A DNA stretch of 64,000 nt from Bacillota bacterium (GCA_015059365.1 SVAO01000006.1:3065-67064); one strand, 5' to 3'; counted from the stretch's first letter, positions 279-50,538 are shown. A program made the numbers and translations. The notes: a model not told the origin generated them from the sequence alone.

Positions 279-747
279 ATATCCTCCAATCTTAACTTGA
301 TTATATAAATTTATTTAATTTATGTCAATATCACATTTGTAATAAATTTTATTAATTAGATATTAAAATAACAAATCTGATAAGAAAGATTATATATGAA
401 TTATAGTAGATACAAGAAATAAATGTTATATTTATGATATATTTACACACAAGTATAAAACATTTATAAATGGACTACAATATAATTAAAAATATAGTTT
501 GATTACCAACAGTTGCTCAAATAAAAGTTGCTCCTTTGTTTAATTTTTTTGTTGATGAACTGTTAGATTATAAAAAAGAAGGTAAAGTTAAATGTAAAGA
601 AGAACAATTTGTAGTAATTAAGCATACAGAAACTATGAAAGTAATCCAATTAAAGTCATTATTTGCTGTTGAAAAACTTGAAATAAATCGATATATTTAT
701 ATAAAAATTATAAAATTAAATAAAAGAATAAGAATTGAATCAAAAAT

Positions 748-1278
748 TCAATTCTTATTTTTATACTCATCAATTAGTATTTTATTAATTTGTTCTGGTG
801 TTTCTTTGCACCCATTATTTAACCAATTTTTAATAATAGAATTTAATCCACCCATAAAAAAAGTGATGTGATATTCTAACTCAACTTTGTCATTATATAG
901 TTGAAAAAAAAGATTATAGTCAATAAAGTTTTCAAATTGTTTATAATCATTATCATAATTTAACTTAAAAAAAGTTTTATAAAATAATTGATTATCTTTT
1001 ATATGTTTGAATAGTTTTAAAAAATCGTAAGAATGAGTTTTTAGTTTTCTTTCATTTGAATATATGTTTAAAACTTCTGTAGCTAAATCTTCTTTTAATT
1101 TGTCTGCTAAATCATATATATCAATATAATTTGCATAAAAAGTTGAACGATTTAATTTGGATAATTTACATATGTCTGATACTGATATTTCGTCGATATC
1201 TTTTTTTTGTAATAATTCAATAAATATTTTTTCTATTTTTAATTGTGATTTCTTTTTATCTTTTTTAACATTATACAT
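748..1278 (-). CDS. TetR/AcrR family transcriptional regulator
   Basis: N-terminal HTH ISVSDICKLSKLNRSTFYANY is typical of TetR. Size is 176 aa. Divergent from the 1407-2741 operon. Confidence 0.85.
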   Translation of the reverse strand: MYNVKKDKKKSQLKIEKIFIELLQKKDIDEISVSDICKLSKLNRSTFYANYIDIYDLADKLKEDLATEVLNIYSNERKLKTHSYDFLKLFKHIKDNQLFYKTFFKLNYDNDYKQFENFIDYNLFFQLYNDKVELEYHITFFMGGLNSIIKNWLNNGCKETPEQINKILIDEYKNKN

Positions 1279-1406
1279 CTTTCAAAACTCCTTTCAAAAA
1301 CCAACAGATGTTGATAAAATGTTGATTGTTTTTTAAACTTAATAAATATTATAATATAAATGTAAAAAAACAACAAGTGTTGTATTTTGGAAAGTGAGGT
1401 GTAAGT

Positions 1407-1670
1407 GTGTCAAAAATAGTAGATGTAAACAAAAAAATTGAAGATGCAGTAGTTAGTGGGTATAAGAAAGTTGAAGATACTGTAGTAGGTGGATACAAAA
1501 AAATTGAAGACAAATTTGTTGATACTTTCTTAAAAAAAGATGGCGAAACTACTGAAGAAGCAAAAGAAAGATTAAACAAAGAACAACAAGAGTTAGCAGA
1601 AAAGAATAAATCAACAGCAGAAGATTCATTAAAACTGTCTAAAGAAATTAATGATAAATATGTAAAGTAA
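1407..1670 (+). CDS. small hypothetical protein with three tandem 11-residue repeats
   Basis: GTG start after GGAAAGTGAGG. Repeats are KKIEDAVVSGY / KKVEDTVVGGY / KKIEDKFVDTF, followed by a charged helical tail. Confidence 0.6.
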   Translation: MSKIVDVNKKIEDAVVSGYKKVEDTVVGGYKKIEDKFVDTFLKKDGETTEEAKERLNKEQQELAEKNKSTAEDSLKLSKEINDKYVK

Positions 1671-1683
1671 TTAGGAGGAAATA

Positions 1684-2079
1684 ATGAAAAAAGAAACTTT
1701 ATTAGAAATTATATTAGGAACAATCGGGGGATTGGTATTTGCAATTGGTATGTGTATGTGTTTAATATCTGAATGGAATCTGTTTGCAGCCGGTGTTATA
1801 GTATCAATAATTGGATTTATAATTTTATTATGTATTATTCCTGTTTATAGGAAAGAACATCCTAAAAAAAGTATTAACAAAAAAACTGATTGGGGATTAG
1901 TATTGACTTGGATAATTGGTGTGGTTGGTGCATTAATTATGGGATTTGGTATGAGTAAAATTATGGTAGGAAGTCCAGAAAAAATGGATATGATTATTGG
2001 TATGATTACGGGTGTTGTAGGATTATTAATATGTGTATTAAACTATCCAATATATTCATATTTAAAAAGTAATAAATAA
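1684..2079 (+). CDS. hypothetical integral membrane protein
   Basis: AGGAGG SD 5 nt upstream of the ATG. Four hydrophobic helices in two similar halves. Confidence 0.7.
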   Translation: MKKETLLEIILGTIGGLVFAIGMCMCLISEWNLFAAGVIVSIIGFIILLCIIPVYRKEHPKKSINKKTDWGLVLTWIIGVVGALIMGFGMSKIMVGSPEKMDMIIGMITGVVGLLICVLNYPIYSYLKSNK

Positions 2080-2081
2080 TA

Positions 2082-2741
2082 ATGATAAAACTATTTGATT
2101 ATTTTAAAAAGTTGGAGAAAGAAGACCGTATTATGTTCTTCTTAATCATTACAACAATAGGAAATATTTTTATAGCAATCACAAAGTTTGTATTATCGTT
2201 AACCATACCATCACTTTGGTTTTTTATAAATGCTTTGTTTATGATTATATTATCGTTTGCAAGATTTTTCTCTATTAGAGATTATGCGATAACAAAAGAT
2301 ATTACTGATAAAAACGAAATAAAAAGGATAGGTTATAAAAATTATTTAAATAATGGAATTTTATTAGTAGTATTAGGTATTATGTATTTTTTGGTAAATG
2401 TTTATATTTATTACAAAGGAACAAATACAAATATGCATGAATATTTAACTTATTTAGTAGCGTTAGTTGCATTTTGGTCTATAGGTTCAGCTATATATGG
2501 AATGATTAAATATAAAAGAAATCATACACCTATATTAAAAGCTGTGAAACTTACAAATTTTGCTAATGCATTAACTTCAATAATGTTAACACAAATAGTA
2601 TTATTAGATACTTATGCTAATACTGAAATTTATAATTCAAATCTTATGAATGGATTAACGGGTATGAGTGTAGGAATTGTCATTATTATATTAGGATTAT
2701 ATATGATAATTGGAATAAATAAGGTAAATAGGGTAGATTAA
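2082..2741 (+). CDS. hypothetical integral membrane protein
   Basis: 219-aa ORF abutting the previous gene. Five to six hydrophobic segments. Confidence 0.7.
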   Translation: MIKLFDYFKKLEKEDRIMFFLIITTIGNIFIAITKFVLSLTIPSLWFFINALFMIILSFARFFSIRDYAITKDITDKNEIKRIGYKNYLNNGILLVVLGIMYFLVNVYIYYKGTNTNMHEYLTYLVALVAFWSIGSAIYGMIKYKRNHTPILKAVKLTNFANALTSIMLTQIVLLDTYANTEIYNSNLMNGLTGMSVGIVIIILGLYMIIGINKVNRVD

Positions 2742-2759
2742 ATTTAATCTATCTTTTTT
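2734..2759 (+). terminator. Rho-independent terminator of the 1407-2741 operon
   Basis: Palindrome TAGATTAAATTTAATCTA followed by TCTTTTTT. Confidence 0.6.
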
Positions 2760-3077
2760 AGTTGTCATTGGATGTGTTGTTAAAATTTACGTTTGAATTT
2801 TTCATGAAAGAATAATAATGATATAAAATGTATTGTATAAGATTTAGAATAATATTAACTATAGTAATAGAGAATAAAAAATAATGTAAAGAGTCATTAG
2901 ATAAACATTAAATGATGCAAATATTTAATAAATGATTTAAATGTGCTATAATACAATTATTGAAAATGATGGTATATAAAAGTTATGAACCATTATTTAA
3001 AGCTCGCAAGTAAGTATTTAATGATATTAAATTAGAAAGATGAAAGAAGATAAAAATTAACAAATAGAGGTAGAAAA

Positions 3078-3971
3078 ATGAAAACGGAAAAAAATATACT
3101 GATTGCTTTTTTATTAAATTTATTATTTTCAATAATAGAATTTATAGGAGGTGTTATAACAAACAGCGTTGCTATTATATCAGACTCTATACATGATATG
3201 GGGGATGCTATGAGTATAGGTGTATCTTATTTATTAGAAAGAAAAAGTAAAAAAAAGCCAGATAGCAATTATACTTATGGCTATGTTAGATATTCTGTAT
3301 TGGGAAGTGTTATTACTACTTTTATATTGATAGGTGGTTCTGTTTTGGTTATCTATAATGCAATATTAAGAATATTTCATCCGACTGAAATTAACTATAA
3401 TGGAATGATAGTTTTCGCAATATTTGGTGTTGCTATAAACTCTTTGGCTGCATATTTTACTAAAGAGGGAGATTCACTAAACCAAAAATCAGTAAATCTA
3501 CATATGCTGGAAGATGTATTAGGATGGATTATAGTATTAGTTGGGGCAATTATAATGAGATTTACAGATATTAAAGTTATAGATTCAATTCTTTCTATTT
3601 TAGTAGCAATATTTATTTTAATAAATTCTTTAAAAACACTAAAATCAATATTAGATTTATTTTTAGAAAAAACACCTAGTAATATTGATATAGAAGAAAT
3701 TAAAGAACATTTATTAAAAATAAAAGGTGTAATTGGTGTTCACCATATACATATTCGTAGTATTGATGGATTCAATAACTATGCAACAATGCATATAGTA
3801 GTAGATTGTGATTACAAAGATGTAAAACATAAAATAAAAGAAGAACTAGAAGAACATAAAATAGTGCATACAACAATTGAATTTGAAGAAAAGAATGAAA
3901 AGTGTAAGATTGAAGAGTGCGAAGTAACAAAATTCAATAAGGAACATCATTACAACAATCATAATCATTAA
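3078..3971 (+). CDS. cation diffusion facilitator (CzcD/ZitB-type Zn/Co/Cd efflux) transporter
   Basis: Six TM segments. CDF motifs IISDSIHDMGDA and HMLEDVLGW. His-rich C-terminal tail HHYNNHNH. Confidence 0.85.
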   Translation: MKTEKNILIAFLLNLLFSIIEFIGGVITNSVAIISDSIHDMGDAMSIGVSYLLERKSKKKPDSNYTYGYVRYSVLGSVITTFILIGGSVLVIYNAILRIFHPTEINYNGMIVFAIFGVAINSLAAYFTKEGDSLNQKSVNLHMLEDVLGWIIVLVGAIIMRFTDIKVIDSILSILVAIFILINSLKTLKSILDLFLEKTPSNIDIEEIKEHLLKIKGVIGVHHIHIRSIDGFNNYATMHIVVDCDYKDVKHKIKEELEEHKIVHTTIEFEEKNEKCKIEECEVTKFNKEHHYNNHNH

Positions 3972-7155: not shown

Positions 7156-8134
7156 TAAATGCGTAGGATGTGGTGCTATTTTACAAACGGAATTTAATGA
7201 TAAAGAAGGATATACTAAAGATACTAATAATAAACTTTGTGAGCGATGCTTTAGAATAAATCATTATGGTGATTATAAAGTAATTGTTAAAGATAATAAT
7301 GAGTTTATTAATATTTTAAAAGATATAAATAAAACTAATGATTTGGTAGTATTAGTTGTGGATTTACTAAATATTAATCAAGAGTTATTGAATTTGTCAA
7401 AAATCATTACTAATCCAATATTATTGGTTTTATCAAAAAGAGATTTGTTACCAAAATCACTTTTTGAAGATAAAATACTTGAATATATGGATCGTTTTAA
7501 ATTAAATATAATTGATAAAGTTATTATAAGCAGTAATAAAAATTATCAGTTTGATGATTTATATGAAAAAATCAATTTATATAAAAGAAGCAAAGATGTT
7601 TATGTTGTGGGATTTACTAATGCAGGTAAATCAACAATGATAAATAAACTTTTATATAATTATTCTAATGTTGATACACGTATTACTACAAGTGTGCTAC
7701 CATCTACGACTTTAAATAATATTGAATTAAGTTTGAATGACGATTTAACTATTATTGATACACCGGGATTATTGGATAAAGGAAATATTATAAATTATGT
7801 AGATGGTAAAGATTTGAAAGTAATTGTTCCTACAAAAGAGATTAAACCAATTACTTATCAAATTAAGGGAAAACAAGTTGTCGAAATAGATAAATATGCT
7901 TTTGTTGAATGTTTAAATACTGATATTACATTATTTATGTCTAACAAGTTAAATATTAAAAGAAATTATAATGATTTTGAGTTTGGTGAATTTGATACTT
8001 ACGAAATAGATGTAAATAGAGGTGAAGATATAGTTATTGTTGGATTGGGTTTTATTAAAGTTAGTAAGAAATCTAACTTTAAAATTCATGTTTTAAAAAA
8101 TGTGTTAGTTTATAAAAGAGACTCTCTTATTTGA
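7148..8134 (+). CDS. yqeH: ribosome biogenesis GTPase YqeH (circularly permuted GTPase)
   Basis: N-terminal zinc ribbon CVGCG...CERC. Permuted G motifs (SKRD before GFTNAGKST, DTPG). Confidence 0.88.
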   Translation: MNNKCVGCGAILQTEFNDKEGYTKDTNNKLCERCFRINHYGDYKVIVKDNNEFINILKDINKTNDLVVLVVDLLNINQELLNLSKIITNPILLVLSKRDLLPKSLFEDKILEYMDRFKLNIIDKVIISSNKNYQFDDLYEKINLYKRSKDVYVVGFTNAGKSTMINKLLYNYSNVDTRITTSVLPSTTLNNIELSLNDDLTIIDTPGLLDKGNIINYVDGKDLKVIVPTKEIKPITYQIKGKQVVEIDKYAFVECLNTDITLFMSNKLNIKRNYNDFEFGEFDTYEIDVNRGEDIVIVGLGFIKVSKKSNFKIHVLKNVLVYKRDSLI

Positions 8135-8143
8135 GTCTTTTTT
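8119..8143 (+). terminator. Rho-independent terminator overlapping the yqeH stop codon
   Basis: AGACTC-tcttatt-GAGTCT followed by TTTTT. Confidence 0.6.
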
Positions 8144-8191
8144 GTTGATTTTTGATTATTTTGATGTTATTATAAAAATAATAAGAATAGG

Positions 8192-9979
8192 GTGATGATA
8201 ATGTTAGGAACTATTATAGGTATAGAGGAAAATGTTGTTTTTATTAAAATTAATATTGACCTTAACAAATTTGATTCTTTAATAAATCTTCATGTTATTA
8301 TGGAAAATAATGATAAAAAAATAGTTGGAGAAATTATTGATATTAAGGATGGTGTTGCATCAGTAAATTTATTAGGGGAAATGATTGACAATAAATTTGT
8401 TTTTGGTGTTATTAACAAACCATCTTTCGCATCTACTGTAAAATTAATTTCAAAAGAAAAAATCCCAATGATTATTAGTTTAGATAATTTTAAAGAAAAT
8501 GAGGGACTTTATATAGGCAATAGTCCAATATATGAGGGTGTTCCTATAGGAGTTAATATAAATTCTTTTTTTAGTAATCATTTTGCGATATTTGGTTCTA
8601 CAGGTAGTGGTAAATCTTGTAGTGTAGCTAGGATATTTCAAAATTTATTTGAAAAACAACAATCAATTGCGTATCGTGCTAGTATATTTATTTTTGATGC
8701 ATATGGTGAGTATTATAATGCTTTTAAAGATATAAATAAAAAGGTTCCGGAACTTAGTTTTAAAACATATACAACAAATACTAATTTTTCAGATACAGAA
8801 ATAATTAAAATACCTTTATGGTTATTAGATACTGATGATATAGCAATTCTTTTGGGAGCGGAGAAAACAAGTCAACTTCCAATTATTGAAAAAGCCTTAA
8901 AATTAGTTACAATATTCGGTAGAGAAGAAGATATTGTTATTAAACATAAAAATGATATTATAGCTCGTGCTATATTGGATATATTATCTAGTGGTCGTCC
9001 TCCTGCACAAATTCGTGATCATATTTTTTCGGTTTTGTCTTACTATAATACTAAGAATTTAAATTTAGATACTGAAATATTCCAACCTGGATATACTAGG
9101 TCGTTAAAGCAGTGTTTACTAATAGATGCGACTGGAAAAATTAGAGAAATGGAATTATTAACTACTTTTATTGAAAGTTTTTTAGATGATAATTTAGAAC
9201 TTAATTTACCTGATGGAACGTTTAAGTATTCTTTAACAGATTTAAAAGATGCATTTGATTTTGCACTTATTTCGGAAGGTATATTAAAAAGCGATAAGGT
9301 TTATGATGAGGCTAATATATTAAAAGTTAGATTACATTCTCTTGTTAATAGTAGTGAAGGTAAATATTTTGATGTTTCAGAATATATATCAAGAGACGAA
9401 TATATTAGAAGTTTGATAACTGCTCCAAATGGAAGAAAAGCTCAAATAATTAATTTTAATATAAATTATGTGGATGATAGATTTGCTAAAACTATAACAA
9501 AAATTTATTCGAAATTATTATTTAATTATGCTAAAGATATGGAAAGAAGAGCTTCAATACCTTTTCATATTGTGCTTGAGGAAGCACATCGTTATGTTCA
9601 AAATGATAATGATATAAATGTTTTAGGGTATAATATTTTTGATCGTATTACAAAAGAAGGAAGAAAATATGGTGTTATATTAGGCCTTATTTCACAAAGA
9701 CCAGCTGAACTTTCAGAAACATCGTTATCACAATGCAATAACTTTTTGATATTTAGAATGTTGCACCCTTTAGATGTTGAGTATATTCAAAAAATGGTGC
9801 CTAATATAACTAATGAAATTGTTAAAAGATTACGTATTTTGCAACCTGGAACTTGTATTGGGTTTGGAAATGCATTTAAAGTTCCTGTGTTAATAAAATT
9901 AGATATGCCTGATCCTGCACCATCTAGTAGTAATTGTGATGTTGCTGGTATTTGGTTTGTAAATAAAAAACAAGATTAA
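8192..9979 (+). CDS. HerA-like (DUF87, FtsK/HerA superfamily) P-loop ATPase, orphan
   Basis: N-terminal beta-barrel-like segment. Walker A FGSTGSGKS, Walker B HIVLEEAHRY, C-terminal LISQRPAELSETSLSQCNNFLIFRM typical of HerA. The true start may be the ATG at 8201 after AGGGTGA. Confidence 0.75.
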   Translation: MMIMLGTIIGIEENVVFIKINIDLNKFDSLINLHVIMENNDKKIVGEIIDIKDGVASVNLLGEMIDNKFVFGVINKPSFASTVKLISKEKIPMIISLDNFKENEGLYIGNSPIYEGVPIGVNINSFFSNHFAIFGSTGSGKSCSVARIFQNLFEKQQSIAYRASIFIFDAYGEYYNAFKDINKKVPELSFKTYTTNTNFSDTEIIKIPLWLLDTDDIAILLGAEKTSQLPIIEKALKLVTIFGREEDIVIKHKNDIIARAILDILSSGRPPAQIRDHIFSVLSYYNTKNLNLDTEIFQPGYTRSLKQCLLIDATGKIREMELLTTFIESFLDDNLELNLPDGTFKYSLTDLKDAFDFALISEGILKSDKVYDEANILKVRLHSLVNSSEGKYFDVSEYISRDEYIRSLITAPNGRKAQIINFNINYVDDRFAKTITKIYSKLLFNYAKDMERRASIPFHIVLEEAHRYVQNDNDINVLGYNIFDRITKEGRKYGVILGLISQRPAELSETSLSQCNNFLIFRMLHPLDVEYIQKMVPNITNEIVKRLRILQPGTCIGFGNAFKVPVLIKLDMPDPAPSSSNCDVAGIWFVNKKQD

Positions 9980-9984
9980 CATAA

Positions 9985-10011
9985 AAGAGTATCTTAGGAT
10001 ATTCTTTTTTT
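9985..10011 (+). terminator. Rho-independent terminator after the HerA-like gene
   Basis: AAGAGTATC-ttag-GATATTCTT (one G-T pair) followed by a T-run. Confidence 0.65.
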
Positions 10012-10040
10012 GTATAAAAGGTAGAAAAGATTCCATAATA
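10012..10040 (+). promoter_or_regulatory. forespore (sigma-G/sigma-F type) promoter of the spoVA operon
   Basis: GTATA (10012-10016), 17 nt, CATAATA (10034-10040). This matches the recalled sigma-G consensus GHATR-N17/18-CATNHTA. The spoVA operon is sigma-G dependent in Bacillus subtilis. Confidence 0.55.
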
Positions 10041-10056
10041 CATTTAGGAGGATATT

Positions 10057-19086: not shown

Positions 19087-19983
19087 ATGTATGATATTAT
19101 TATAATAGGTTGTGGCCCAGCAGGAATGACTGCAGCAATATATGCGGCTAGGGCTAATAAAAAAGTATTAATTTTAGAAAAAGAAACGATAGGGGGGCAG
19201 ATGTCATCTGCTCCTCTAATCGAAAATTATCCTGGATATAAAAATATTAGTGGTAGTGAACTTGCAACTAATATGTTTGACCAAATGATAGATTTAGGGG
19301 TTGATTTTGAACTTGAAGAGGTAAATGAAATCATTGGTGGGCCTTTAAAGAAGGTGGTTACAGATGACAATATTTATGAAACCAAAAGTGTAATCATCAC
19401 AACCGGTTCTAAATACCGTAAACTTGGATTAGAAAATGAAGATAATTTAATTGGTAAGGGAATTCATTTTTGTACTTCTTGTGATGGAATATTTTTTAAA
19501 GATAAGATTGTTGCAATAATTGGTGGTGGTAATAGTGCGGTTATTAATGCTTTAACCATGTCGGATATTTGTACTAAAGTATATATTATTCAAAATTTAG
19601 ATAAGCTAACTGCGGAAGATATTTTAATCGATAAGTTAAAACAGAAAGAAAATGTTGAAATTATTACTGGTGCCTGTGTTAAACAAATAATCGGTGATGA
19701 TAATTTAGATTCTGTCGTTGTTGAAACAAATGGCAAAGAAAATAAAATAAAGTTAGATGGGATGTTTATTTCTATTGGCTTAACTCCTCAAAGTGAAATA
19801 GTTAAAGATATTTTAAAAGTTAATAAATATGGATATATAGAATCAAATAATTGTGTAACAGATTTGGAAGGTGTTTTTGTTGCCGGTGATTGTAGAGATA
19901 AGGCGTTTAGGCAAATAACAATTGCAACTAGTGATGGAACAGTTGCTGCAACGGAAGCAATTAATTATTTGAATAATAAATAA
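19087..19983 (+). CDS. trxB: thioredoxin-disulfide reductase
   Basis: FAD GxGxxG IIGCGPAG, redox-active CTSCDG, NADPH site GGGNSA, about 300 aa. Confidence 0.88.
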   Translation: MYDIIIIGCGPAGMTAAIYAARANKKVLILEKETIGGQMSSAPLIENYPGYKNISGSELATNMFDQMIDLGVDFELEEVNEIIGGPLKKVVTDDNIYETKSVIITTGSKYRKLGLENEDNLIGKGIHFCTSCDGIFFKDKIVAIIGGGNSAVINALTMSDICTKVYIIQNLDKLTAEDILIDKLKQKENVEIITGACVKQIIGDDNLDSVVVETNGKENKIKLDGMFISIGLTPQSEIVKDILKVNKYGYIESNNCVTDLEGVFVAGDCRDKAFRQITIATSDGTVAATEAINYLNNK

Positions 19984-20014
19984 TTTTAATATACAAATAA
20001 TTTACAGTGTGGGA

Positions 20015-20043
20015 TTGACATTTTGTATCTAAAAAGTTATTAT
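20015..20043 (+). promoter_or_regulatory. sigma-A type promoter of family gene A1
   Basis: TTGACA (20015-20020), 17 nt, TATTAT (20038-20043). Confidence 0.5.
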
Positions 20044-20068
20044 TACAATAGGAGAGAGGAAGTGTTTG

Positions 20069-20681
20069 AATGCAAAGAACAAGAAATAGACAAATAATGA
20101 CTATTGCACTTATCATGGCATCAATAGTAGGACTAGGGGTAGGATTTGCAGCATTCTCTAGTTCATTAAGCATTAAATCTGGAGTATCAGTAAGCCCTGA
20201 TTCATCAACATTTAGTGTTAAGTTTTCATCAAGTGCAACAGCACAAGAAAGGAATCCCATAGAAGCAGTAACAAATCCTGAAACATTGGTCGCAAAAGAT
20301 GGGGAAATAGATGCAGTAGATGCAACTACAATAAGTAATCTATCAGTTGAATTCACCCAACCAGATCAAACAGCAACATATACGTTTTATGCAAGAAATA
20401 CAGGAGCATATTTAGCGTATTTAAATATGATTCAAGTTGGTGAAAAAACATGTACACCTGGGGATGGTGCAGATGCAGATTTAGTTGCAGCAGCATGTGA
20501 AGCGTTGAGCGTTAGTGTAAGTGTTGGAACAAATAGTGTTACAAAAACTGAAAGCATTACAAATCATACATTAGCAGCAGGAAGTAGTGAAGAGGTAATT
20601 GTAACTTTAGAATATGCGAAAGATGGAGCAAGAGCAGATGGAGCGTTTACAGTGTCATTTGGTGATATTTCATTAACATAT
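20069..20681 (+). repeat. 613-bp dispersed direct repeat (copy 1), 5' two-thirds of A1
   Basis: Aligns without gaps to 36773-37385. By eye there are roughly 15-20 mismatches, about 97 percent identity. Similarity collapses right after ...ggtgatatttcattaacatat. Confidence 0.85.
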
Positions 20682-21224
20682 TCATCATCAACTTCTAATA
20701 GTGGGAATACTATTATAGAAGGAGAATTTGATACATTTTTTAAAACATGTACGTTATTGGATGGTGGAATATATGAAGTTGGTTCAAAATATTTGTGTCA
20801 ATTTGATAATGCTGCAGTAGAATTTTATTTGTTGAGTCATGAGAAACAAGAAGATGAGTATGGCTATGGTCATAGTACAGTTTTGATAGCAGCAGAAAAT
20901 GTTGTGGATAATATCTCTTATTATGATGCAATGTCATTGTTGGATGAAACAAATGGCGATAGTAGTATACAGGGAATGTGGGGAGTTAATGGCGGAGCAG
21001 AGAGTCATCACATATACATGCCAACACTTGATGATCTTAATAGCGTAAGTACTAATGGATATGTACCATCATGGGCTCAAGGATATTATTGGTTAGAAAG
21101 TGAAAATGAAATTGTAGATGTAGTACGTGATGCAGAAATATTTGGAAGTGCGGCTTATAGGGATGAAACTGATTATGGTGTTCGACCAGTACTAAATTTA
21201 ACTTACTGGTGGTCTATTGCATAA
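20070..21224 (+). CDS. secreted/surface protein A1: TasA/SipW-type-like signal peptide, beta-rich module, conserved Cys-containing C-terminal module (YWL...GVRPV)
   Basis: N-terminus MQRTRNRQIMTIALIMASIVGLGVGFAAFSSS resembles SipW-cognate leaders (GGTxAAF[ND]D). The middle resembles the camelysin/TasA-like YTFYARNTGAYLAYL. The C-terminus shares CTLLxGxxYEVGSKYLCQF, EFY, PSWxxGYYW and GVRPVLNL with the pilin-like neighbours. Confidence 0.8.
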   Translation: MQRTRNRQIMTIALIMASIVGLGVGFAAFSSSLSIKSGVSVSPDSSTFSVKFSSSATAQERNPIEAVTNPETLVAKDGEIDAVDATTISNLSVEFTQPDQTATYTFYARNTGAYLAYLNMIQVGEKTCTPGDGADADLVAAACEALSVSVSVGTNSVTKTESITNHTLAAGSSEEVIVTLEYAKDGARADGAFTVSFGDISLTYSSSTSNSGNTIIEGEFDTFFKTCTLLDGGIYEVGSKYLCQFDNAAVEFYLLSHEKQEDEYGYGHSTVLIAAENVVDNISYYDAMSLLDETNGDSSIQGMWGVNGGAESHHIYMPTLDDLNSVSTNGYVPSWAQGYYWLESENEIVDVVRDAEIFGSAAYRDETDYGVRPVLNLTYWWSIA

Positions 21225-21316: not shown

Positions 21317-21345
21317 TTGACAAATTATTAATAAAGATATATTCT
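21317..21345 (+). promoter_or_regulatory. sigma-A type promoter of pilin-like gene B1 (copy of the family promoter)
   Basis: TTGACA-aattattaataaagata-TATTCT. The 70 nt up to the ATG are identical to the regions upstream of 38089 and 39182. Confidence 0.55.
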
Positions 21346-21367: not shown

Positions 21368-22264
21368 ATGAGAAAAAATGGATTTACTTTAATAGAATTA
21401 CTTGCAGTAATAGTAGTACTTGCAATTATTACGTTAATCGCAACGCCGGTAGTGATGGATGTAATAAAAAATGTTGAGAAAGCCGCATCTGAAAGAAGTG
21501 CAGAAAATTACGTATCGTCAGTAGAAAGATTAATTATTACAGAAAGATTAGATGGTAATATAATTCAAGATGGAACATATGAAATTAATAGTGATGGAAA
21601 TCTAGTAATAAACGGAGTTGTTAAAGTTATTGAAATGAGTGGTAAAAAACCAAGTGGTGGAACAATTACTATATTAGATGGTGTAGTATCTAAAGAAAGT
21701 ACTACTACTATTACAGTTGGTAATTATGATGTTACATATGACGCTAATGGAAGATTGGTAGCAACAGAAAGTGAAGGAATTGTAATTACTGCAGCTGAAA
21801 ATCAATTCTATTGTACATTATTAAATGGTTCATCATTTGCCGTTGGTTCAAAATATTTATGTCAATTTAATAGCCAAGCAGTAGAATTTTATGTATTAGA
21901 GGCTATAGAAGCTCCAGAAGAAGATAAAGATTTGTATTCTTATACTATGAAATTAATTCCTGCACAAGATGCAAAATTCGAAGGTCTAACATTAGAACTT
22001 GATGGAATGGATTATGATGCATACGTTATAAGTGTTGCCGGTGAGTGGGGTGTTGAATATAGTCAATTAATGACACCAACATATGAACAATTATATGCAA
22101 TAAACAATTCAGAAAACTTACCGTCATGGCTTCATGGTGATTATTGGGTAAATTCGCAAAGTGGTGATGTTTATATTGTTGACAATAATTCGTTAGTATC
22201 AAATGCAGAATTAGATGGATATCATGGAATTAGACCTGTTCTTACATTTAATGTGCAACCATAG
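21368..22264 (+). CDS. modular type IV pilin-like protein B1 (prepilin leader plus shared C-terminal module)
   Basis: Class III signal MRKNG|FTLIELLAVIVVLAIITLIA (Glu at +5). C-terminal FYCTLLNGSSFAVGSKYLCQF...EFYVL...PTYEQLYAINNSENLPSWLHGDYWV...GIRPVLTF. Confidence 0.85.
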   Translation: MRKNGFTLIELLAVIVVLAIITLIATPVVMDVIKNVEKAASERSAENYVSSVERLIITERLDGNIIQDGTYEINSDGNLVINGVVKVIEMSGKKPSGGTITILDGVVSKESTTTITVGNYDVTYDANGRLVATESEGIVITAAENQFYCTLLNGSSFAVGSKYLCQFNSQAVEFYVLEAIEAPEEDKDLYSYTMKLIPAQDAKFEGLTLELDGMDYDAYVISVAGEWGVEYSQLMTPTYEQLYAINNSENLPSWLHGDYWVNSQSGDVYIVDNNSLVSNAELDGYHGIRPVLTFNVQP

Positions 22265-35566: not shown

Positions 35567-36643
35567 ATGTTTGGTGGATTAGAAATGGATCAATTAGCTA
35601 AAATAAAGGTAATTGGAGTAGGTGGCGGAGGAAATAACGCTGTTAATAGAATGATTGAATCAGGAGTTAAGGGAGTAGATTTTATTGTAGCTAATACAGA
35701 CTTACAAGTATTAAATAGTTCTAAAGCTCCAGTAAAAATTCAAATAGGAACAGAACTAACTAATGGATTGGGTGCAGGTGCAAATCCTCAAATAGGACGA
35801 GAAGCTGCATTAGAATCAAAGGCTGAAATAGAGGCTGCATTAGAAGGTGCAGACATGGTTTTTGTTACTTGTGGAATGGGTGGAGGAACTGGAACTGGGG
35901 CAGCTCCAGTAGTAGCATCAATTGCACAAGAAATGGGAGCTCTTACTGTAGGTATTGTTACAAAACCTTTCTCATTTGAAGGTAAAAAACGTATGGAACA
36001 AGCTTTAAACGGATTAGATGAATTAAAGAAGCATGTGGATACTTTAATTGTAATTCCTAATGATCGTTTAAGAGAAATTATTGATAAATCGACTCCATTA
36101 TTGGATTCATTTAAAGAAGTTGATAATGTTTTACGTCGTGGTGTTCAATCTATTTCAGATTTGATTGCGGTTGCAGGGTTAATTAACTTAGACTTTGCCG
36201 ATGTTAAAGCAGTAATGGAAAAACGTGGAAATGCTTTAATTGGAATAGGTATTGGAGTTGGAGAAAATAGAGCTGCCGAAGCTGCTAAACAAGCTGTAGA
36301 AAGTCCACTTCTTGAAACAAGTATAAGTGGTGCTACAGATGCGATTATCAATGTTACTGGTGGTTCTAATTTAACACTTTTTGAAGTAGAAGAGGCTGCA
36401 GAAGTTATTAGAACAAGTGCTAATACTGATATTAATACTATCTTTGGAGCGGTAATTAATGAAAATTTAAATGATGAAATCATTGTAACAGTTATTGCAA
36501 CAGGTTTTGAAGATAAAACAGATCCACTTTATCATTCATATTCAACAACAACTCGTGAAGAATTAAGAAGAAATGATGATTCTTCAGAAGGTTCAGATGA
36601 TGAAGCATCAATTCCATCTTTCTTAAGAAAAAGAGGATTTTAA
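35567..36643 (+). CDS. ftsZ: cell division protein FtsZ
   Basis: [13 protein letters not shown], tubulin signature [12 protein letters not shown]-terminal [10 protein letters not shown] peptide. Confidence 0.97.
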
Positions 36644-36655
36644 TAATTGTTAATC

Positions 36656-36679
36656 AAACGTCAAATTGACGTTTTTTTA
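36656..36679 (+). terminator. Rho-independent terminator after ftsZ
   Basis: AAACGTC-aaatt-GACGTTT followed by TTTTT. Confidence 0.75.
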
Positions 36680-36708
36680 TTGACTTTGTACGTAAAAAAA
36701 TATATCAT
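36680..36708 (+). promoter_or_regulatory. candidate sigma-A promoter of A2
   Basis: TTGACT (36680-36685), 17 nt, TATCAT (36703-36708). A second TATAAT at 36750-36755 lacks a -35. Confidence 0.4.
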
Positions 36709-36772
36709 AAAATTATGATAGTACAAGCAATAACAATACTACATTGTATTATAATTAGAAAGAGGTTATAAA

Positions 36773-37385
36773 AATGCAAAGAACAAGAAATAGACAAATA
36801 ATGACTATTGCACTTATCATGGCAGCAATAGTAGGACTAGGGGTAGGATTTGCAGCATTCTCTAGTTCATTAAGCATTAAATCTGGAGTATCAGTAAGTC
36901 CTGATTCATCAACATTTAGTGTTAAATTTTCATCAAGTGCAACAGCACAAGAAAGGAATCCCATAGAAGCAGTAACAAATCCTGAAACATTGGTCGCAAA
37001 AGATGGGGAAATAGATGCAGTAGATGCAACCACAATAGGTAATCTATCAGTTGAATTCACCCAACCAGATCAAACAGCAACATATACTTTTTATGCAAGA
37101 AATACAGGAGCATATTTAGCATATTTAAATATGATTCAAGTTGGTGAAAAAACATGTACACCTGGGGAAGGTACAGATGCAGATTTAGTTGCAGCAGCAT
37201 GTGACGCGTTGAGCGTTAGTGTAAGTGTTGGAACAAATACTGTTACAGAAACTGAAAGCATTACAAATCATACATTAGCAGCAGGAAGTAGTGAAGAGGT
37301 AATTGTAACTTTAGAATATGCGAAAGATGGAGCAAGAGCAGATGGACCATTTACAGTAACATTTGGTGATATTTCATTAACATAT
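36773..37385 (+). repeat. 613-bp dispersed direct repeat (copy 2), 5' two-thirds of A2
   Basis: Gap-free alignment with 20069-20681. Confidence 0.85.
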
Positions 37386-37865
37386 GCAACAACTGCTGAA
37401 TCCCAAGATATTCCAGAAGTTTATATTGGATGGGATCAATCATGCAAATTAATAAGTGGCACAGTATATGAAGTCGGTTCTAAATATACATGTAAGTTTA
37501 TGGGCGATTTTGATAACGAAACAGAAGTAGATTTCTACATGTTGCAAAGTGATCTTGATGCAGGTATGGTTTATTTGATTACTGTAGAAACGTTTGGTTC
37601 TGGTATGACTCAATATGAAGCACAAATAAGTGCGGAAGCTGATTTTTTGATGGAATATAGACTTAATGGGGAAAGTTTTTCATTACCTACATATGGTCAA
37701 TTATACGCAGTTGATAATTCTGAAACATTACCATCATGGCTTCATGGTGAGTATTGGTTAGCGTCAGAGGGAGGGGAAGATGTTTATTCGGTTTTTGGAG
37801 ATACTATAAGTAGTGACCATTCATCGGCAGGAGCTCGATTTGTTTATAATTTAAGTACAATATAA
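36774..37865 (+). CDS. secreted/surface protein A2 (paralog of A1; same leader and beta module, different C-terminal module subtype)
   Basis: The first 204 residues differ from A1 at about 9 positions. C-terminus GWDQSCKLISGTVYEVGSKYTCKF...LPTYGQLYAVDNSETLPSWLHGEYWLAS...GARFVYNLS matches the adjacent B2. Confidence 0.8.
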   Translation: MQRTRNRQIMTIALIMAAIVGLGVGFAAFSSSLSIKSGVSVSPDSSTFSVKFSSSATAQERNPIEAVTNPETLVAKDGEIDAVDATTIGNLSVEFTQPDQTATYTFYARNTGAYLAYLNMIQVGEKTCTPGEGTDADLVAAACDALSVSVSVGTNTVTETESITNHTLAAGSSEEVIVTLEYAKDGARADGPFTVTFGDISLTYATTAESQDIPEVYIGWDQSCKLISGTVYEVGSKYTCKFMGDFDNETEVDFYMLQSDLDAGMVYLITVETFGSGMTQYEAQISAEADFLMEYRLNGESFSLPTYGQLYAVDNSETLPSWLHGEYWLASEGGEDVYSVFGDTISSDHSSAGARFVYNLSTI

Positions 37866-37961
37866 AAGATGATAAACGCTTGTAATAGTATAATTATCTA
37901 AATGATTTTGAATAGAAGTTTTATATAAAATACTTAATTTTATGAATATATTAATAAAAAA

Positions 37962-37988
37962 CGACACAAAAATGCGTGTCGTTTTTTT
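37962..37988 (+). terminator. hairpin terminator, family element copy 1
   Basis: CGACAC-aaaaatgc-GTGTCG followed by TTTTTTT. Confidence 0.7.
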
Positions 37989-38037
37989 GTTGAAAAATGA
38001 ATCATAAATAGGTATACAAGCGGTTTACAAAATTGTA

Positions 38038-38066
38038 TTGACAAATTATTAATAAAGATATATTCT
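38038..38066 (+). promoter_or_regulatory. sigma-A type promoter of B2
   Basis: TTGACA, 17 nt, TATTCT. Same sequence as at 21317 and 39131. Confidence 0.55.
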
Positions 38067-38088
38067 TAAGGAGAATAGAGGTGTAGAA

Positions 38089-38952
38089 ATGAGAAAAAAT
38101 GGATTTACTTTAATAGAATTACTTGCAGTAATAGTAGTGCTTGCGGTAATAGCGTTAATTGCAATACCAGTAGTAATGGATGCAATAAGTAATGCTGAGA
38201 AAGGTGCTGCTGAAAGAAGTGCGGAAAATTATGCATCAGCGGTTGAAAGATTAATTGCTACAGAAAGATTAGATGGTAATATAATTCAAGATGGAACATA
38301 TGAAATTAATAGTGATGGAAATCTAGTAATAAACGGAGTTGTTAAAGTTATTGAAATGAGTGGTAAAAAACCAAATGGTGGAACAATTACTGTATCAAAC
38401 GGTGTGATAGCAAAAGAAAGTACCACTACTATTACAGTTGGTAATTATGACGTTACATACAACGCAGAAGGGAAGACTGTTATTAACGAAAAAGAAACAG
38501 TTGTTCAAACTATTGGTTATGATCAATCATGTAAATTAATAAGCGGAAAATTATATGAGGTTGGTTCTAAATATACATGTAAGTTTATAGGTAATAATGA
38601 AACTGAAATAGAATTAGATTTTTATTTTTTGGAAGATGATTATGAGTTTGGAGCGGTAAATTTGATTTCTGCAGATACTTTTGGTGCAGATACTATGGAG
38701 TTCTACGAAGCATATGTTTATGCAGGAAGTGATTTTGCGGTAGAACATGGTATTATTGGTAGTTTTTCATTACCTACATATGCCCAATTATATGCGGTTA
38801 ACAAATCTGAAACTATACCTTCGTGGCTTTATGGGAATTATTGGTTAGCGTCAGATGGAGGGGTAGATGTTTATTCGGTTTTTGGGGATACAATAATTGT
38901 TGAAGCTGAATCAGCAGGAGTACGGGTTGTTTATAACTTAAGTTTAGTATAA
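38089..38952 (+). CDS. modular type IV pilin-like protein B2
   Basis: MRKNG|FTLIELLAVIVVLAVIALIA. C-terminal GYDQSCKLISGKLYEVGSKYTCKF...LPTYAQLYAVNKSETIPSWLYGNYWLAS...GVRVVYNLS. Confidence 0.85.
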   Translation: MRKNGFTLIELLAVIVVLAVIALIAIPVVMDAISNAEKGAAERSAENYASAVERLIATERLDGNIIQDGTYEINSDGNLVINGVVKVIEMSGKKPNGGTITVSNGVIAKESTTTITVGNYDVTYNAEGKTVINEKETVVQTIGYDQSCKLISGKLYEVGSKYTCKFIGNNETEIELDFYFLEDDYEFGAVNLISADTFGADTMEFYEAYVYAGSDFAVEHGIIGSFSLPTYAQLYAVNKSETIPSWLYGNYWLASDGGVDVYSVFGDTIIVEAESAGVRVVYNLSLV

Positions 38953-39053
38953 AAGATGATAAATTATCAGTGTTTGTAATAACTGAAATATATTAGAAAG
39001 TCTAAATAGTTTTTATAATAAAATGTTTGGTTTTATGAAAATATAACACGAAA

Positions 39054-39081
39054 CGACACAAAAATGCGTGTCGTTTTTTTT
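39054..39081 (+). terminator. hairpin terminator, family element copy 2
   Basis: CGACAC-aaaaatgc-GTGTCG followed by TTTTTTTT. Confidence 0.7.
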
Positions 39082-39130
39082 GTTGAAAAATGAATCATAA
39101 ATAGGTATACAAGCGGTTTACAAAATTGTA

Positions 39131-39159
39131 TTGACAAATTATTAATAAAGATATATTCT
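39131..39159 (+). promoter_or_regulatory. sigma-A type promoter of B3
   Basis: TTGACA, 17 nt, TATTCT. Confidence 0.55.
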
Positions 39160-39181
39160 TAAGGAGAATAGAGGTGTAGAA

Positions 39182-40084
39182 ATGAGAAAAAATGGATTTA
39201 CTTTAATAGAATTACTTGCAGTAATAGTAGTGCTTGCGGTAATAGTGTTAATTGCAATACCAGTAGTAATGGATGTAATAAGTAATGCTGAGAAAGGTGC
39301 TGCTGAAAGAAGTGCGGAAAATTATGCATCAGCAGTTGAAAGATTAATTGCTACAGAGAGATTAGATGGTAATATAATTGAAACTGGAACATATGAAATT
39401 AATAGTGATGGAAATTTAGTAATAAATGGAGTTGTTAAGGTTGTTGAGATAAATGGTAAAAAACCAACTGGTGGAACAATTACTATTTCTAATGGTGAAG
39501 TATTGAAAGAAACCACAATAATAATTGTGGGGAATTATACAATGTCATGTGACAATAATGGAAAATTTGTAGCAGAAGAAAAGAAACAAATAATTGTTGA
39601 TAATACATTTGGTGTTAAATGTACATTGTTGAGTGGTAAATTATATGAAGTTGGTTCGAAATATCTGTGTGATAGGAATGGACGTTCAGAACAATTTTAT
39701 ATTATAAATAGCATTGAAGCTCCAGAAGAAGACAAAGAGTTTTATGATTATAATTTAACAATTATGTCTGCAGAGAATTTAAATAATGGACAAGAAGTAG
39801 ATGGGTCAGAAACATATAGCGTGGTATTTGATTTAGCGCTAGCATGGTTTGAAGACAGTGCTGATTATTATGCAATATTACCTACATATGAACAATTGTA
39901 TGCAATTAATAATTCTGAAACATTACCATCTTGGCTTTCTGGAAATTATTGGCTTGATATTAAACAATCTGATGAGTATTATCAAGAATATATTGTAGAA
40001 AATGGTGTTATAAAGGAAAATAATGATTACATTTTAACAGGAGTACGCGCTATTATAAATTTAAGTTTTTATAAAGAAGGATAA
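39182..40084 (+). CDS. modular type IV pilin-like protein B3
   Basis: MRKNG|FTLIELLAVIVVLAVIVLIA. C-terminal KCTLLSGKLYEVGSKYLCD...IEAPEEDKEFYDY...LPTYEQLYAINNSETLPSWLSGNYWL...GVRAIINLS. The EAPEEDK insert is shared with B1. Confidence 0.85.
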   Translation: MRKNGFTLIELLAVIVVLAVIVLIAIPVVMDVISNAEKGAAERSAENYASAVERLIATERLDGNIIETGTYEINSDGNLVINGVVKVVEINGKKPTGGTITISNGEVLKETTIIIVGNYTMSCDNNGKFVAEEKKQIIVDNTFGVKCTLLSGKLYEVGSKYLCDRNGRSEQFYIINSIEAPEEDKEFYDYNLTIMSAENLNNGQEVDGSETYSVVFDLALAWFEDSADYYAILPTYEQLYAINNSETLPSWLSGNYWLDIKQSDEYYQEYIVENGVIKENNDYILTGVRAIINLSFYKEG

Positions 40085-40159
40085 GACATATTTATAAAAA
40101 ACGGTGCTTAATATAATTACTTAAATATGAAATAAAATATATTTTAGTTTAACATAAAG

Positions 40160-40187
40160 CGACACAAAAATACGTGTCGTTTTTTTA
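40160..40187 (+). terminator. hairpin terminator, family element copy 3, abutting the spoIIGA promoter
   Basis: CGACAC-aaaaatac-GTGTCG followed by a T-run that runs into TATAAT at 40186-40191. Confidence 0.6.
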
Positions 40188-40191
40188 TAAT
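40186..40191 (+). promoter_or_regulatory. -10 element (TATAAT) of the spoIIGA-sigE operon; no recognisable -35
   Basis: TATAAT lies 15 nt upstream of the spoIIGA ATG region. The -35 position falls inside the hairpin (CACAAA). This fits an activator-dependent promoter, as for Spo0A-dependent spoIIG in B. subtilis. Confidence 0.4.
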
Positions 40192-48712: not shown

Positions 48713-48831
48713 AAATCACATCCTAATAAAATTTATGCTTTTATATTAAAAATTTATTTTGTCCAATATTTTTAATATAAAAAAAGGATATAAGAAAGTT
48801 AAGTAGAATGTTAAGAGTGAGGGAGGGATTT

Positions 48832-50538
48832 ATGAAAAAAATAATTTTAGTAGTTATATTTTTATTTGTTGGTATGGTTAAAGTTGGTGCGAAAGAAATT
48901 TATTATTCAGAGTATGGTAATTTTAGTGATTATTTGTTGCAACCATATCAGTCTTCGGAGTTAGTTAATGTAGAAACAGAAAGGAGATATAGATATTATG
49001 ACGAGGTAAAAATTGGACAATATAAAACATATTTAGATGACGTTTCTAATTTTAATTTTATTGATTTTAATGATATGAAAAATAATGATTTTAGTAAGTG
49101 GAGTGATGAGAAACCAAAAGAACAATATAAAAGAATTATAGAAACAAAGACTTTTTATAAAGTAAAAAGGCCTAAACCGGTTAAAAATATTAATTTTATT
49201 AATACACTAGAAGGTACAATTGAACTAAATAATATAGAAGTTTATTATTTGAATGAAAAAATTGATTATGAATCATCAATTGAAAATGGAGAGGAGTATC
49301 GTCTTAATTTTTGGGATAGTTTAACACTAGATTTAAGAGATTATTATGATTTACAAAAATTAATTATTAAGATTGGAAACGTTGAATTTAATGGATTAGA
49401 TGAACTTTTAATTACAGCGGCTATTCCATCAGATGATAATTCATATCAAATAAACTATTTTAGTGTAAATCTAAATAATGATAATACTAAGAATATAGTG
49501 TTAAATGCTGATGATTGGATTAAAGCAAATCCTGATTATTATGAAGAAGAAATTGTTGATAATAAAGAAAATGCAGATTTATCTATAATTAATGAAGTCA
49601 TTCTTTATCGTTACCAAGATCCGTTATTTTATTTTTATAATATTGAAAAGCGATATGTTGATGGTTATTTTGTAGATTATCCAGGAATGATTAAAGATGA
49701 AAATGATTATCAAGATTATTATAGGTATCAGGTCAGGGATAAAGTAGAGGTTTCAAAAGAAATTGTAGTTGATAATTATAATCAACAATTATCTGATTTT
49801 ATAAATTCTACAGTTGATTATGATATAATCACAAATTTAGATATTAATAAGAATGGCATTTATCAAGTAAACTACAAAACTGATTTTGTTGATATTAAAA
49901 AAGAGGTTAGAGTAAATATTAAAGAAAATGATTTAAAGGAATCTCGTAAAGAATATGAACAATTAAATAGTGAACTTAACAATCTAAAACAACAGTATGA
50001 AATTAAACAGTTTGAATTGAATGAAATAAAAAATAATTATGAAGAATTGCTTGTTGATAATAATAATTTAAATTTAGAATTGGAAAATGTTAAGAAAGAG
50101 AATTTGAATCTTGTAAATATTTGTGATGATTACGATAATATAAGTTATGTTTTAAATCAATATATTAATAAATATAATATTCTGCAAAATGAAAATAACA
50201 AATTAAAACAACAATATTACAATTTATTAGATATTAATGAAAAATATATTTTAGATAATGAAAATTTAAATTTTAAATTTAATACTGTTCAAAATGAAAA
50301 TGAAAAGCTAAAGATTGATTTGAATGATATTAAAAATAATAGTGAAATCTTAAATAAAAAATTAAATTTGAGTAAACAAGCATATAAATATTTACAATCC
50401 CACTTTTTAAAAATAAATAATGAGAAATCTAGATGTTTAAATAAAATAAATTTATTTTGGATTATTTTAATTTCAGTAATACTAATCTGTTTAATAATAA
50501 TATTTATAAAAAAATTGTCTAACAAAAATAAGGGCTAG
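48832..50538 (+). CDS. hypothetical secreted/membrane-anchored coiled-coil protein
   Basis: GGGAGGG SD. Signal peptide MKKIILVVIFLFVGMVKVGA, then a roughly 370-aa Tyr/Asn/Asp-rich region and about 170 aa of heptad-like N/L/E/K repeats. C-terminal TM helix LFWIILISVILICLIIIFI. Confidence 0.7.
   Translation: MKKIILVVIFLFVGMVKVGAKEIYYSEYGNFSDYLLQPYQSSELVNVETERRYRYYDEVKIGQYKTYLDDVSNFNFIDFNDMKNNDFSKWSDEKPKEQYKRIIETKTFYKVKRPKPVKNINFINTLEGTIELNNIEVYYLNEKIDYESSIENGEEYRLNFWDSLTLDLRDYYDLQKLIIKIGNVEFNGLDELLITAAIPSDDNSYQINYFSVNLNNDNTKNIVLNADDWIKANPDYYEEEIVDNKENADLSIINEVILYRYQDPLFYFYNIEKRYVDGYFVDYPGMIKDENDYQDYYRYQVRDKVEVSKEIVVDNYNQQLSDFINSTVDYDIITNLDINKNGIYQVNYKTDFVDIKKEVRVNIKENDLKESRKEYEQLNSELNNLKQQYEIKQFELNEIKNNYEELLVDNNNLNLELENVKKENLNLVNICDDYDNISYVLNQYINKYNILQNENNKLKQQYYNLLDINEKYILDNENLNFKFNTVQNENEKLKIDLNDIKNNSEILNKKLNLSKQAYKYLQSHFLKINNEKSRCLNKINLFWIILISVILICLIIIFIKKLSNKNKG

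Follow-up and report, generated by a model that had tools for sequence, protein, structure and literature searches.

A 64,000-nt segment of a Bacillota bacterium genome (GCA_015059365.1, SVAO01000006.1:3065-67064; hereafter the window) holds three related genes, A2, B2 and B3, at positions 36680-40191 in the interval between ftsZ and spoIIGA/sigE. Each encodes an N-terminal carrier module joined to a C-terminal effector, or cargo, domain, and two paralogues, A1 and B1, form a further locus (locus 1) in the same window. The B proteins are modular type IV pilins, and the close match between the cargo domains of A2 and B2 is the footprint of an in-frame segmental duplication of approximately 1.09 kb that yielded a chimeric pilin. 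Because the carrier and cargo trees are incongruent and the synonymous divergence (dS) jumps at the GDISLTY junction between the two modules, the cargo has passed from one carrier type to the other on two or more occasions. We consider it likely that A2, B2 and B3 are three independently transcribed surface proteins of carrier-plus-effector design, the binding repertoire of which evolves by recombination and not by point hypermutation.

Results

A2 (36774-37865, + strand, 363 aa), B2 (38089-38952, +, 287 aa) and B3 (39182-40084, +, 300 aa) are complete open reading frames (ORFs), in agreement with an initial annotation of the window that had placed three family genes between ftsZ (35567-36643) and spoIIGA. 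Locus 1 consists of A1 (20070-21224, +), which has a carrier nearly identical to that of A2 and a cargo without a close partner, and the modular pilin gene B1 (21368-22264, +). No family copy beyond these five was detected in the window by tblastn. The arrangement is real and not an assembly artefact, because three independent Joint Genome Institute (JGI) assemblies are 100% identical to the window over the entire locus and A1, B2 and B3 are also recorded in a metagenome-assembled genome (MAG) at NCBI.

The segment 37424-38574 aligns with 38511-39664 as one contiguous 1171-nt repeat with 79.8% identity. The repeat unit of about 1087 bp comprises a cargo domain, a terminator, the B promoter and a pilin module: the first unit (37424-38510, +) contains the A2 cargo (37424-37865, +), its terminator, the B promoter and the B2 pilin module, and the second (38511-39597, +) contains the B2 cargo, terminator, B promoter and the B3 pilin module. 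The two copies are 75% identical over the cargo, 88% over the intergenic part and 84% over the pilin module, with a dS of 0.55 between the A2 and B2 cargo. The chimeric B2 gene is old, since an orthologue with 88.5% nucleotide identity is found in another lineage (L100), which is consistent with that dS value. In this orthologue (L100 165-1028, protein P0010) the first ~35 cargo residues (SGTVYEVGSKYTCKFMGDFD) match A2 and the remainder matches B2; the A2-like start is either the ancestral state or the product of a further A2-B2 conversion in one lineage.

The order of the genes points to the simplest history of the locus. The starting point is an A-B pair resembling locus 1, in which an in-frame tandem duplication of cargo X, the intergenic region and the pilin module gives A-X, B-X and B-Y, the order observed; the duplication thereby created B2, with an A-type cargo placed on a pilin carrier. 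Gene conversion maintains near-identity of the carriers and of the B promoter in spite of the divergence of the cargo, and a separate, older event links the cargo of B1 to that of A3 (P0004), an A protein encoded elsewhere in the same species.

The cargo domains of A2 and B2 share 61.7% amino acid identity, whereas every other pair among the five window genes shares 29-43% (A1-B1, 39.5%; A1-A2, 34.5%; A1-B3, 29.0%; B1-B3, 42.5%). The carriers pair by type, at 92.5% identity for A1-A2 and 76-82% among the B genes, as the initial annotation had observed for the N-terminal halves. A3 and outgroups were added to a neighbour-joining bootstrap tree of the cargo domains, in which A2, B2 and their alleles form one group (100% bootstrap) and A3 and B1, which are 58% identical, form another (100%); B3 is sister to the A3/B1 group at 60% only, and A1 is unplaced. 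The carriers group strictly by type. Separate phylogenies of the N- and C-terminal halves are thus incongruent, where congruent ones would have spoken against cargo exchange. The motifs quoted in the initial annotation are each present as written, and the module subtype that it assigned to A2 and B2 is a genuine group. Its second subtype (A1, B1 and B3) forms no clade, as A1 has no supported partner.

A third A-B locus of the same species (L092 1-3219) lies just downstream of tuf and encodes A3 (376 aa) followed by B4, a 546-aa pilin with a C-terminal DUF7743 region unrelated to the A3 cargo. The earlier proposition that the cargo of an A gene resembles that of its adjacent B gene more than that of the other A gene therefore applies to A2/B2 only, is marginal for A1/B1 and fails for A3/B4, since A3 is nearest to B1 at another locus. 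Recombination between the two carrier types is supported, in line with the cassette-like exchange suggested at the outset; the co-variation within a locus from which that suggestion was drawn is not general.

The carriers and pilin modules carry separate signs of recombination. A1 (20069-20687) and A2 (36773-37391) are 97% identical in nucleotide sequence from the ATG to GDISLTY and unalignable on either flank, and dS rises from 0.049 in the carrier to 0.98 in the cargo, the break coinciding precisely with the GDISLTY junction. Within its pilin module, B2 agrees with B3 at 34 of the 35 informative sites up to ~38260 and with B1 at 29 of the 32 sites past that point (Fisher p=1.7e-14). The A1/A2 carrier block and the B2 pilin module are gene-conversion mosaics. 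Two nearly identical antisense ORFs lie opposite the A1 and A2 carriers (19961-20356, -, 131 aa; 36755-37060, -, 101 aa); they arise from the 97% identity of the carrier DNA and are probably not genes.

Two contigs join family segments in other combinations. The A carrier of L001 (P0002) is a different one that shows no nucleotide similarity to the window; the conserved ARADGPF codons mark the point past which the contig matches the A2 cargo, the intergenic region and the start of B2 at 99.9% identity. L099 (P0001) is identical to locus 1 as far as a 48-nt stretch inside the A carrier, past which it matches the A2 locus. The two contigs were assembled with MEGAHIT from samples in which the window strain is also present, and both end at the repeat boundary 38122 of the window; they may be assembly chimeras and are treated as leads, not evidence. 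If real, they would be cassette replacements with the conserved A carrier as the left arm and the B promoter and pilin N-terminus as the right arm. Contigs encoding the exact B3 protein showed no variation and were identical copies of the same strain. Many assemblies, among them the contigs L006, L007, L009, L010, L001 and L099, stop where the B promoter and the pilin N-terminus are repeated (~38122, ~39105-39123). Such repeats fragment metagenome assemblies, and the family will therefore be under-represented or mis-joined in MAGs.

The N-termini of B1, B2 and B3 are canonical prepilin leaders (MRKNGFTLIELL) of class III, with the prepilin cleavage and N-methylation motif G-F-T-L-I-E and Glu at +5. 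All three match PF07963 (27-29 bits; cutoff 21.2) and TIGR02532 (30-32 bits; cutoff 16.3), and a search for B homologues returned 1629 matches, with PF07963 present in 120 of the 120 matches listed. The AlphaFold model of B2 (mean predicted local distance difference test score, pLDDT, of 85) contains a 54-residue alpha-1 helix (residues 8-61) and strands at 69-140 that form a small beta head, followed by a separate domain; pLDDT by block is 86-93 for residues 41-130 and 73 for residues 131-140. The extra domain of ~140-150 aa past residue ~140 is homologous to the C-termini of the A proteins and to DUF6273-bearing proteins. The B2 cargo is of the A2 lineage. That of B3 belongs to a different subtype, with an IEAPEEDK insert in common with B1 and A3.

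The A2 carrier module (36774-37391, +) consists of a signal or anchor helix, the GFAAFS motif, a conserved disordered segment and a beta-sandwich that ends at GDISLTY. In the A2 model the helix covers residues 2-29 and the beta-sandwich residues 50-205, the latter with pLDDT above 90 (93-98 in most 10-residue blocks) and two invariant cysteines. The intervening segment (residues 30-49) is of low confidence in the model and yet nearly invariant in the family, the conserved positions here and at the helix end being G25, F26, A27, A28, F29, S30, L33, I35, V41, P43 and F48. Neither Pfam nor NCBIfam contains a match to the A1 or A2 carrier, and Foldseek and a sequence profile search returned no significant PDB match. 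No Pfam model exists for the family, which numbers at least 100 cluster representatives, the majority of them from MAGs of uncultured Bacilli/Bacillota. Stand-alone versions of the module (~205-235 aa) are found, as are fusions to dockerin, LRR_5, DUF6273 or unknown C-termini.

TasA is a natural candidate relative of the A carrier by eye, its motif GTWAAFND being comparable to GFAAFS. The likeness to TasA/BsaA extends to an N-terminal hydrophobic helix ending in G-F-A-A-F-S, to a conserved segment that is disordered in the monomer and precedes a beta-sandwich, and to the A-like genes that flank an archaeal-type signal peptidase I gene in two relatives. All direct tests of membership in the TasA/SipW group failed, however. 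TIGR04088 gave no match at E<=10 in the A2 N-terminus, the L056 A-like protein or the L045 N-terminus (TasA control, 38 bits); TIGR04090, NF046066 and Pfam Peptidase_M73 gave none in the A proteins, whereas the TasA control matches the NCBIfam models; hhalign of the A alignment against TasA returned a probability of 0.8%; and TasA was absent from the Foldseek matches of the A2 model and from the PDB sequence profile search. The archaeal-type signal peptidase I beside the A-like genes in L053 and L056 scores 91 bits against TIGR02228 (cutoff 51.85), and no such gene was found in the 64-kb window. The A carrier should not be filed as a TasA/BsaA member and, given the failed tests, is treated here as an uncharacterised family. 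A candidate assembly operon for the A family is the seven-gene cluster directly after ftsZ in L053 (3436-9377). Two stand-alone A-type genes there flank a gene for a 377-aa protein in which a multi-pass membrane domain is fused to the archaeal-type signal peptidase I; the remaining members are three unknown ORFs and a gene for a Listeria-Bacteroides-repeat protein whose N-terminus is similar.

The cargo domains of the five genes have in common C..L..G....VGSKY.C, followed by FY, PT...L, PSW..G.YW and G.R. A cargo profile searched exhaustively against 1.84 billion cluster representatives found 43 proteins at E<=1e-3, so that the exact form of the cargo is lineage-restricted. In several of these proteins, among them P0225, P0231 and P0224, the region matched by the profile overlaps a PF19789 (DUF6273) match or terminates in one, and sub-threshold Lcl_C matches were also seen. 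P0225 itself scores 42 bits against the DUF6273 model (cutoff 23.5), and its hhalign comparison with the cargo profile reached a probability of 91% (E=1e-6). In a wider pilin alignment DUF6273 is present in 10 of 62 members and Lcl_C in 4 of 62. Weak Foldseek matches include NKR-P1 (probability 0.3-0.47; template modelling score 0.33) and models of a viral C-type lectin, DUF6273 and DUF1566. DUF6273 has been described as a C-type-lectin-like domain that serves in gut phages as a receptor-binding domain and as a target of diversity-generating retroelements (DGRs) (PMC10743442, PMC11792537). We conclude that the cargo is a remote DUF6273-like domain and probably lectin-like.

The five genes all have a start codon, a ribosome-binding site and a promoter-like box of the sigma-70 type. 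At 36656-36674 (+) a terminator-like hairpin closes the ftsAZ unit, and the A2 promoter box follows at 36680-36708 (+; TTGACT-17-TATCAT, a consensus match only). The 28-nt B promoter box is identical at the three B genes (positions 21317, 38038 and 39131), and so lies at 38038-38065 (+) before B2 and at 39131-39158 (+) before B3. The same hairpin and T-run is found 3' of A2 (37962-37981, +; CGACAC..GTGTCG, then the T-run), B2 (39054-39073, +) and B3 (40160-40179, +), and a terminator scan detected 7 terminator-like sites versus 0.7 expected. Each gene of this locus thus has its own promoter-like box and terminator, as had been noted earlier. Since the ~80 nt 5' of A2 are 79% identical to the region 5' of A3, the A promoters are related as well. 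The promoters look vegetative, and nothing ties the A and B genes to sporulation. The B3 hairpin overlaps the first in-frame start of the spoIIGA ORF, a GTG at 40174; the true start is probably at 40207 (MKIYVDL), because the homologues in relatives begin with MKIY(V/L)DL.

The bacterium is a spore former, and the window is part of its core chromosome, with a low GC content of ~27% and with nrdD, trxB, rpsP, tsf, murG, murB, divIB, ftsA, ftsZ, spoIIGA, sigE, spoVA and cotE among its genes. The nearest relatives of the segment are MAGs of uncultured "Bacilli/Tenericutes" that come from samples of gut, rumen and other origin. Two further features of the window are a 576-aa ORF without a Pfam match (48808-50538, +), which adjoins genes for a sigma factor, a STAS-domain protein and a second sigma factor, and a HerA/DUF87-type ATPase gene (8192-9979, +) between a YqeH-like GTPase gene and spoVA genes.

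Family members also occur next to core genes in other places. Four loci in two species have a pilin gene immediately 3' of an A gene (A1-B1, A2-B2, A3-B4 and L098), and A genes without pilin neighbours are known as well (P0005, P0054 and L053). One of the latter, P0005, comes from the window's own species; its gene lies between glmS and secE and joins an A carrier to dockerin. The L098 locus (8001-10042), directly after tuf in the other species, encodes an A-type protein with a DUF6273-like cargo and then a type IV pilin with two dockerin repeats, the likely start of which is a non-ATG codon upstream of the called gene. Dockerins on both pilins and A carriers imply cohesin partners. Orphan modular pilin genes are found beside ruvA and ruvB in another MAG. 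The MAG contigs L101 and L102 (13457-15400) are colinear up to an orphan modular pilin gene after ruvB and then carry different genes; pilin genes may thus mark rearrangement breakpoints.

Discussion

The duplication grafted a cargo-bearing segment of the A2 gene onto a pilin, and we propose that the proteins work at the cell surface. Once cleaved by a prepilin peptidase, B2 and B3 would become part of a type IV filament, either as tip subunits or at scattered positions along the shaft, and would there expose a DUF6273-like and probably C-type-lectin-like binding domain. A2 would be exported by the Sec pathway and displayed outside the cell or polymerised, with its disulfide-containing beta-sandwich serving as a stalk or fibre. 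Several lectin-like binding domains could in this manner be presented on two scaffolds and renewed by duplication and recombination at the carrier/cargo junction, a repertoire that may be of adaptive value, while gene conversion would keep the carriers compatible with their assembly machinery. The sequence itself shows the anatomy of the genes, the pilin identity of the B proteins, the duplication, the mosaics and the incongruence of the trees; export and surface display, entry into filaments, binding of ligands and the benefit of a repertoire are inferred.

Several results weigh against this proposal. The 64-kb window encodes neither type IV pilus machinery nor a prepilin peptidase or dedicated signal peptidase, for which reason pilus assembly of the B proteins is only inferred. 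PF19789 does not match A1, A2, B1, B2 or B3 even at E<=1, the whole two-domain models have no Foldseek match at E<=0.001 in PDB or BFVD, and the A carrier has no recognisable relative with a known function. Divergence inside the duplicated unit is uneven, so that later conversion and/or faster evolution of the cargo must be assumed. No long homology is obvious at the duplication junction, and the mechanism may have been illegitimate or microhomology-based.

Among the alternatives, functional coupling of the two protein types survives best. The pilins might act as a pseudopilus that exports or presents the A proteins; this is unlikely, although it is compatible with the proposal made here. A precedent is the reported PilA3-dependent secretion of BsaC, a protein of the SipW operon of Clostridium perfringens (PMC11580942). 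The recurrent A-B adjacency, together with the DUF6273-like and dockerin effectors common to both carriers, leaves room for such coupling, and the archaeal-type signal peptidase I beside the A-like genes in L053 and L056 is in its favour too. It is opposed by the failure of the A proteins against the SipW-cognate signal and TasA/BsaA models that the TasA control matches and by the hhalign result, as well as by the separate promoters and terminators of A and B and by the A genes that lack a pilin neighbour.

Co-adaptation, in which the A and B proteins of one locus would form a matched pair that recognises the same ligand or each other, so that selection keeps their cargo alike, appears improbable. 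It was raised in the initial annotation, and both the adjacency of A and pilin genes at four loci in two species and the 62% identity of the A2 and B2 cargo could be cited for it. The A2/B2 similarity continues at 88% through the non-coding terminator and spacer, which selection on proteins cannot produce, and extends over the promoter into the pilin N-terminus. Matched-pair selection is unnecessary because the homology runs through non-coding DNA. A1 and B1 are only 39.5% identical and unsupported as a pair in the tree, and the A3 cargo matches that of B1 at another locus while the neighbouring B4 C-terminus is unrelated.

Equally unconvincing, and if anything more improbable, is a recent insertion of the three genes into a conserved junction by a phage or mobile element. 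The gap between ftsZ and spoIIGA is 3564 nt in the window versus a median of 82 nt (range 27-3277) in 26 relatives in which spoIIGA follows ftsZ, and DUF6273 is frequent in phage receptor-binding proteins. The interval has no visible integrase, transposase or flanking repeats, however. Its composition is close to that of the neighbouring genes, and the genes are paralogous to chromosomal loci of the same genome. The site is also occupied in several related species: A-superfamily genes follow ftsZ directly in L018 and L053, small pilin genes do so in L035 and L040, and in L045 the gap is taken up by a 721-aa protein whose C-terminus is of the GIRP... type. The earlier description of the genes as wedged into a core junction has to be toned down accordingly. 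In Bacillus subtilis the interval is the site of bpr, which encodes a secreted protease. The occurrence of orphan A and pilin genes beside core genes elsewhere (tuf, secE and ruvA) likewise speaks against an insertion of foreign DNA. A fixed gene set, which would argue against exchange of modules, is seen only among near-identical assemblies of the same strain; related species differ widely. Hypermutation by a DGR is a highly improbable source of the cargo differences, in spite of the role of DUF6273 domains as DGR targets in gut phages, as the A2/B2 mismatches are not restricted to adenine (of 108, only 31 have an A in the one copy and 29 in the other) and are spread over the whole domain with indels, and the window contains no template-repeat-like copy of any cargo 3' end.

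Grafting and recombination of effector domains thus remain our preferred reading. A more speculative extension, which we regard as rather unlikely, is that the A carrier is the subunit of an undescribed surface fibre or anchor of gut Bacilli, with a donor-strand N-terminal segment and a dedicated archaeal-type signal peptidase, that it is coupled to the adjoining orphan modular pilins, and that both draw on a shared, recombining pool of lectin-like and dockerin effectors, which would amount to genome-wide diversification of adhesins on two carriers.

Modular pilins, the sharing of effectors between carriers and DUF6273-annotated pilins in databases were already known, and the shuffling of adhesin domains, although clear at this locus, has precedents. 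New are the reconstructable duplication that grafted a non-pilin effector onto a pilin, the unannotated A carrier family with its association with orphan pilins, and the pattern of concerted evolution among the carriers. Modular pilins are assumed to originate by "grafting", a step that is rarely seen and can be reconstructed here, and the A carrier family both shares effectors with pilins and is often encoded adjacent to them. In these small-genome, uncultured gut and rumen bacteria, the A and B proteins are therefore plausible main determinants of attachment. The practical value lies in annotation and in the choice of candidates for binding studies, and no concept is overturned.

Comparison with known systems

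In the pilE/pilS system of Neisseria, a conserved N-terminal part of the pilin is combined with variable C-terminal parts that are exchanged by homologous recombination between paralogues. The genes described here resemble this and other families of conserved N-terminus and variable C-terminus in their uniform N-terminal carriers and exchanged C-termini. They differ in that all copies are complete, promoter-bearing genes, with no promoterless truncated silent cassettes, and in that whole domains of ~150 aa differ by 40-70%; programmed high-frequency switching is not evidenced in the A and B genes.

The cargo is similar to DUF6273 (PF19789) and Lcl_C (DUF1566) in its C-terminal signature (LPT..QL.., PSW..G.YW and G(V/I)RPV..L) and by profile homology, and by analogy with such domains in phage receptor-binding proteins it may be expected to bind a ligand. 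In contrast to DUF6273, it has an additional N-terminal, Cys-containing beta subdomain (C.L..G..YEVGSKY.C), and unlike the DUF6273 domains that are DGR targets it bears no DGR signature, having been diversified by duplication and recombination.

A further close parallel is the modular pilin, defined as an N-terminal pilin carrier, a short linker and a bulky C-terminal effector that binds a ligand (Raynaud et al. 2021, PMC8179133), as exemplified in Streptococcus sanguinis by PilB with a von Willebrand factor A (vWA) module and PilC with a lectin module (PMC8179133). B2 and B3 are built in the same way from a pilin carrier, a short linker and a C-terminal effector. Effector modules common to two types of carrier, pilins and PilY1, have been described (PMC8179133); the second carrier here is a new beta-sandwich family and not PilY1. 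Compared with the S. sanguinis proteins, the effector is a DUF6273-like domain, and the genes are orphans with their own promoters, scattered among housekeeping genes, and not part of a pil operon. In contrast to the modular pilins described previously (PMC8179133), the present genes allow a recent intragenomic transfer of an effector between carriers to be reconstructed.

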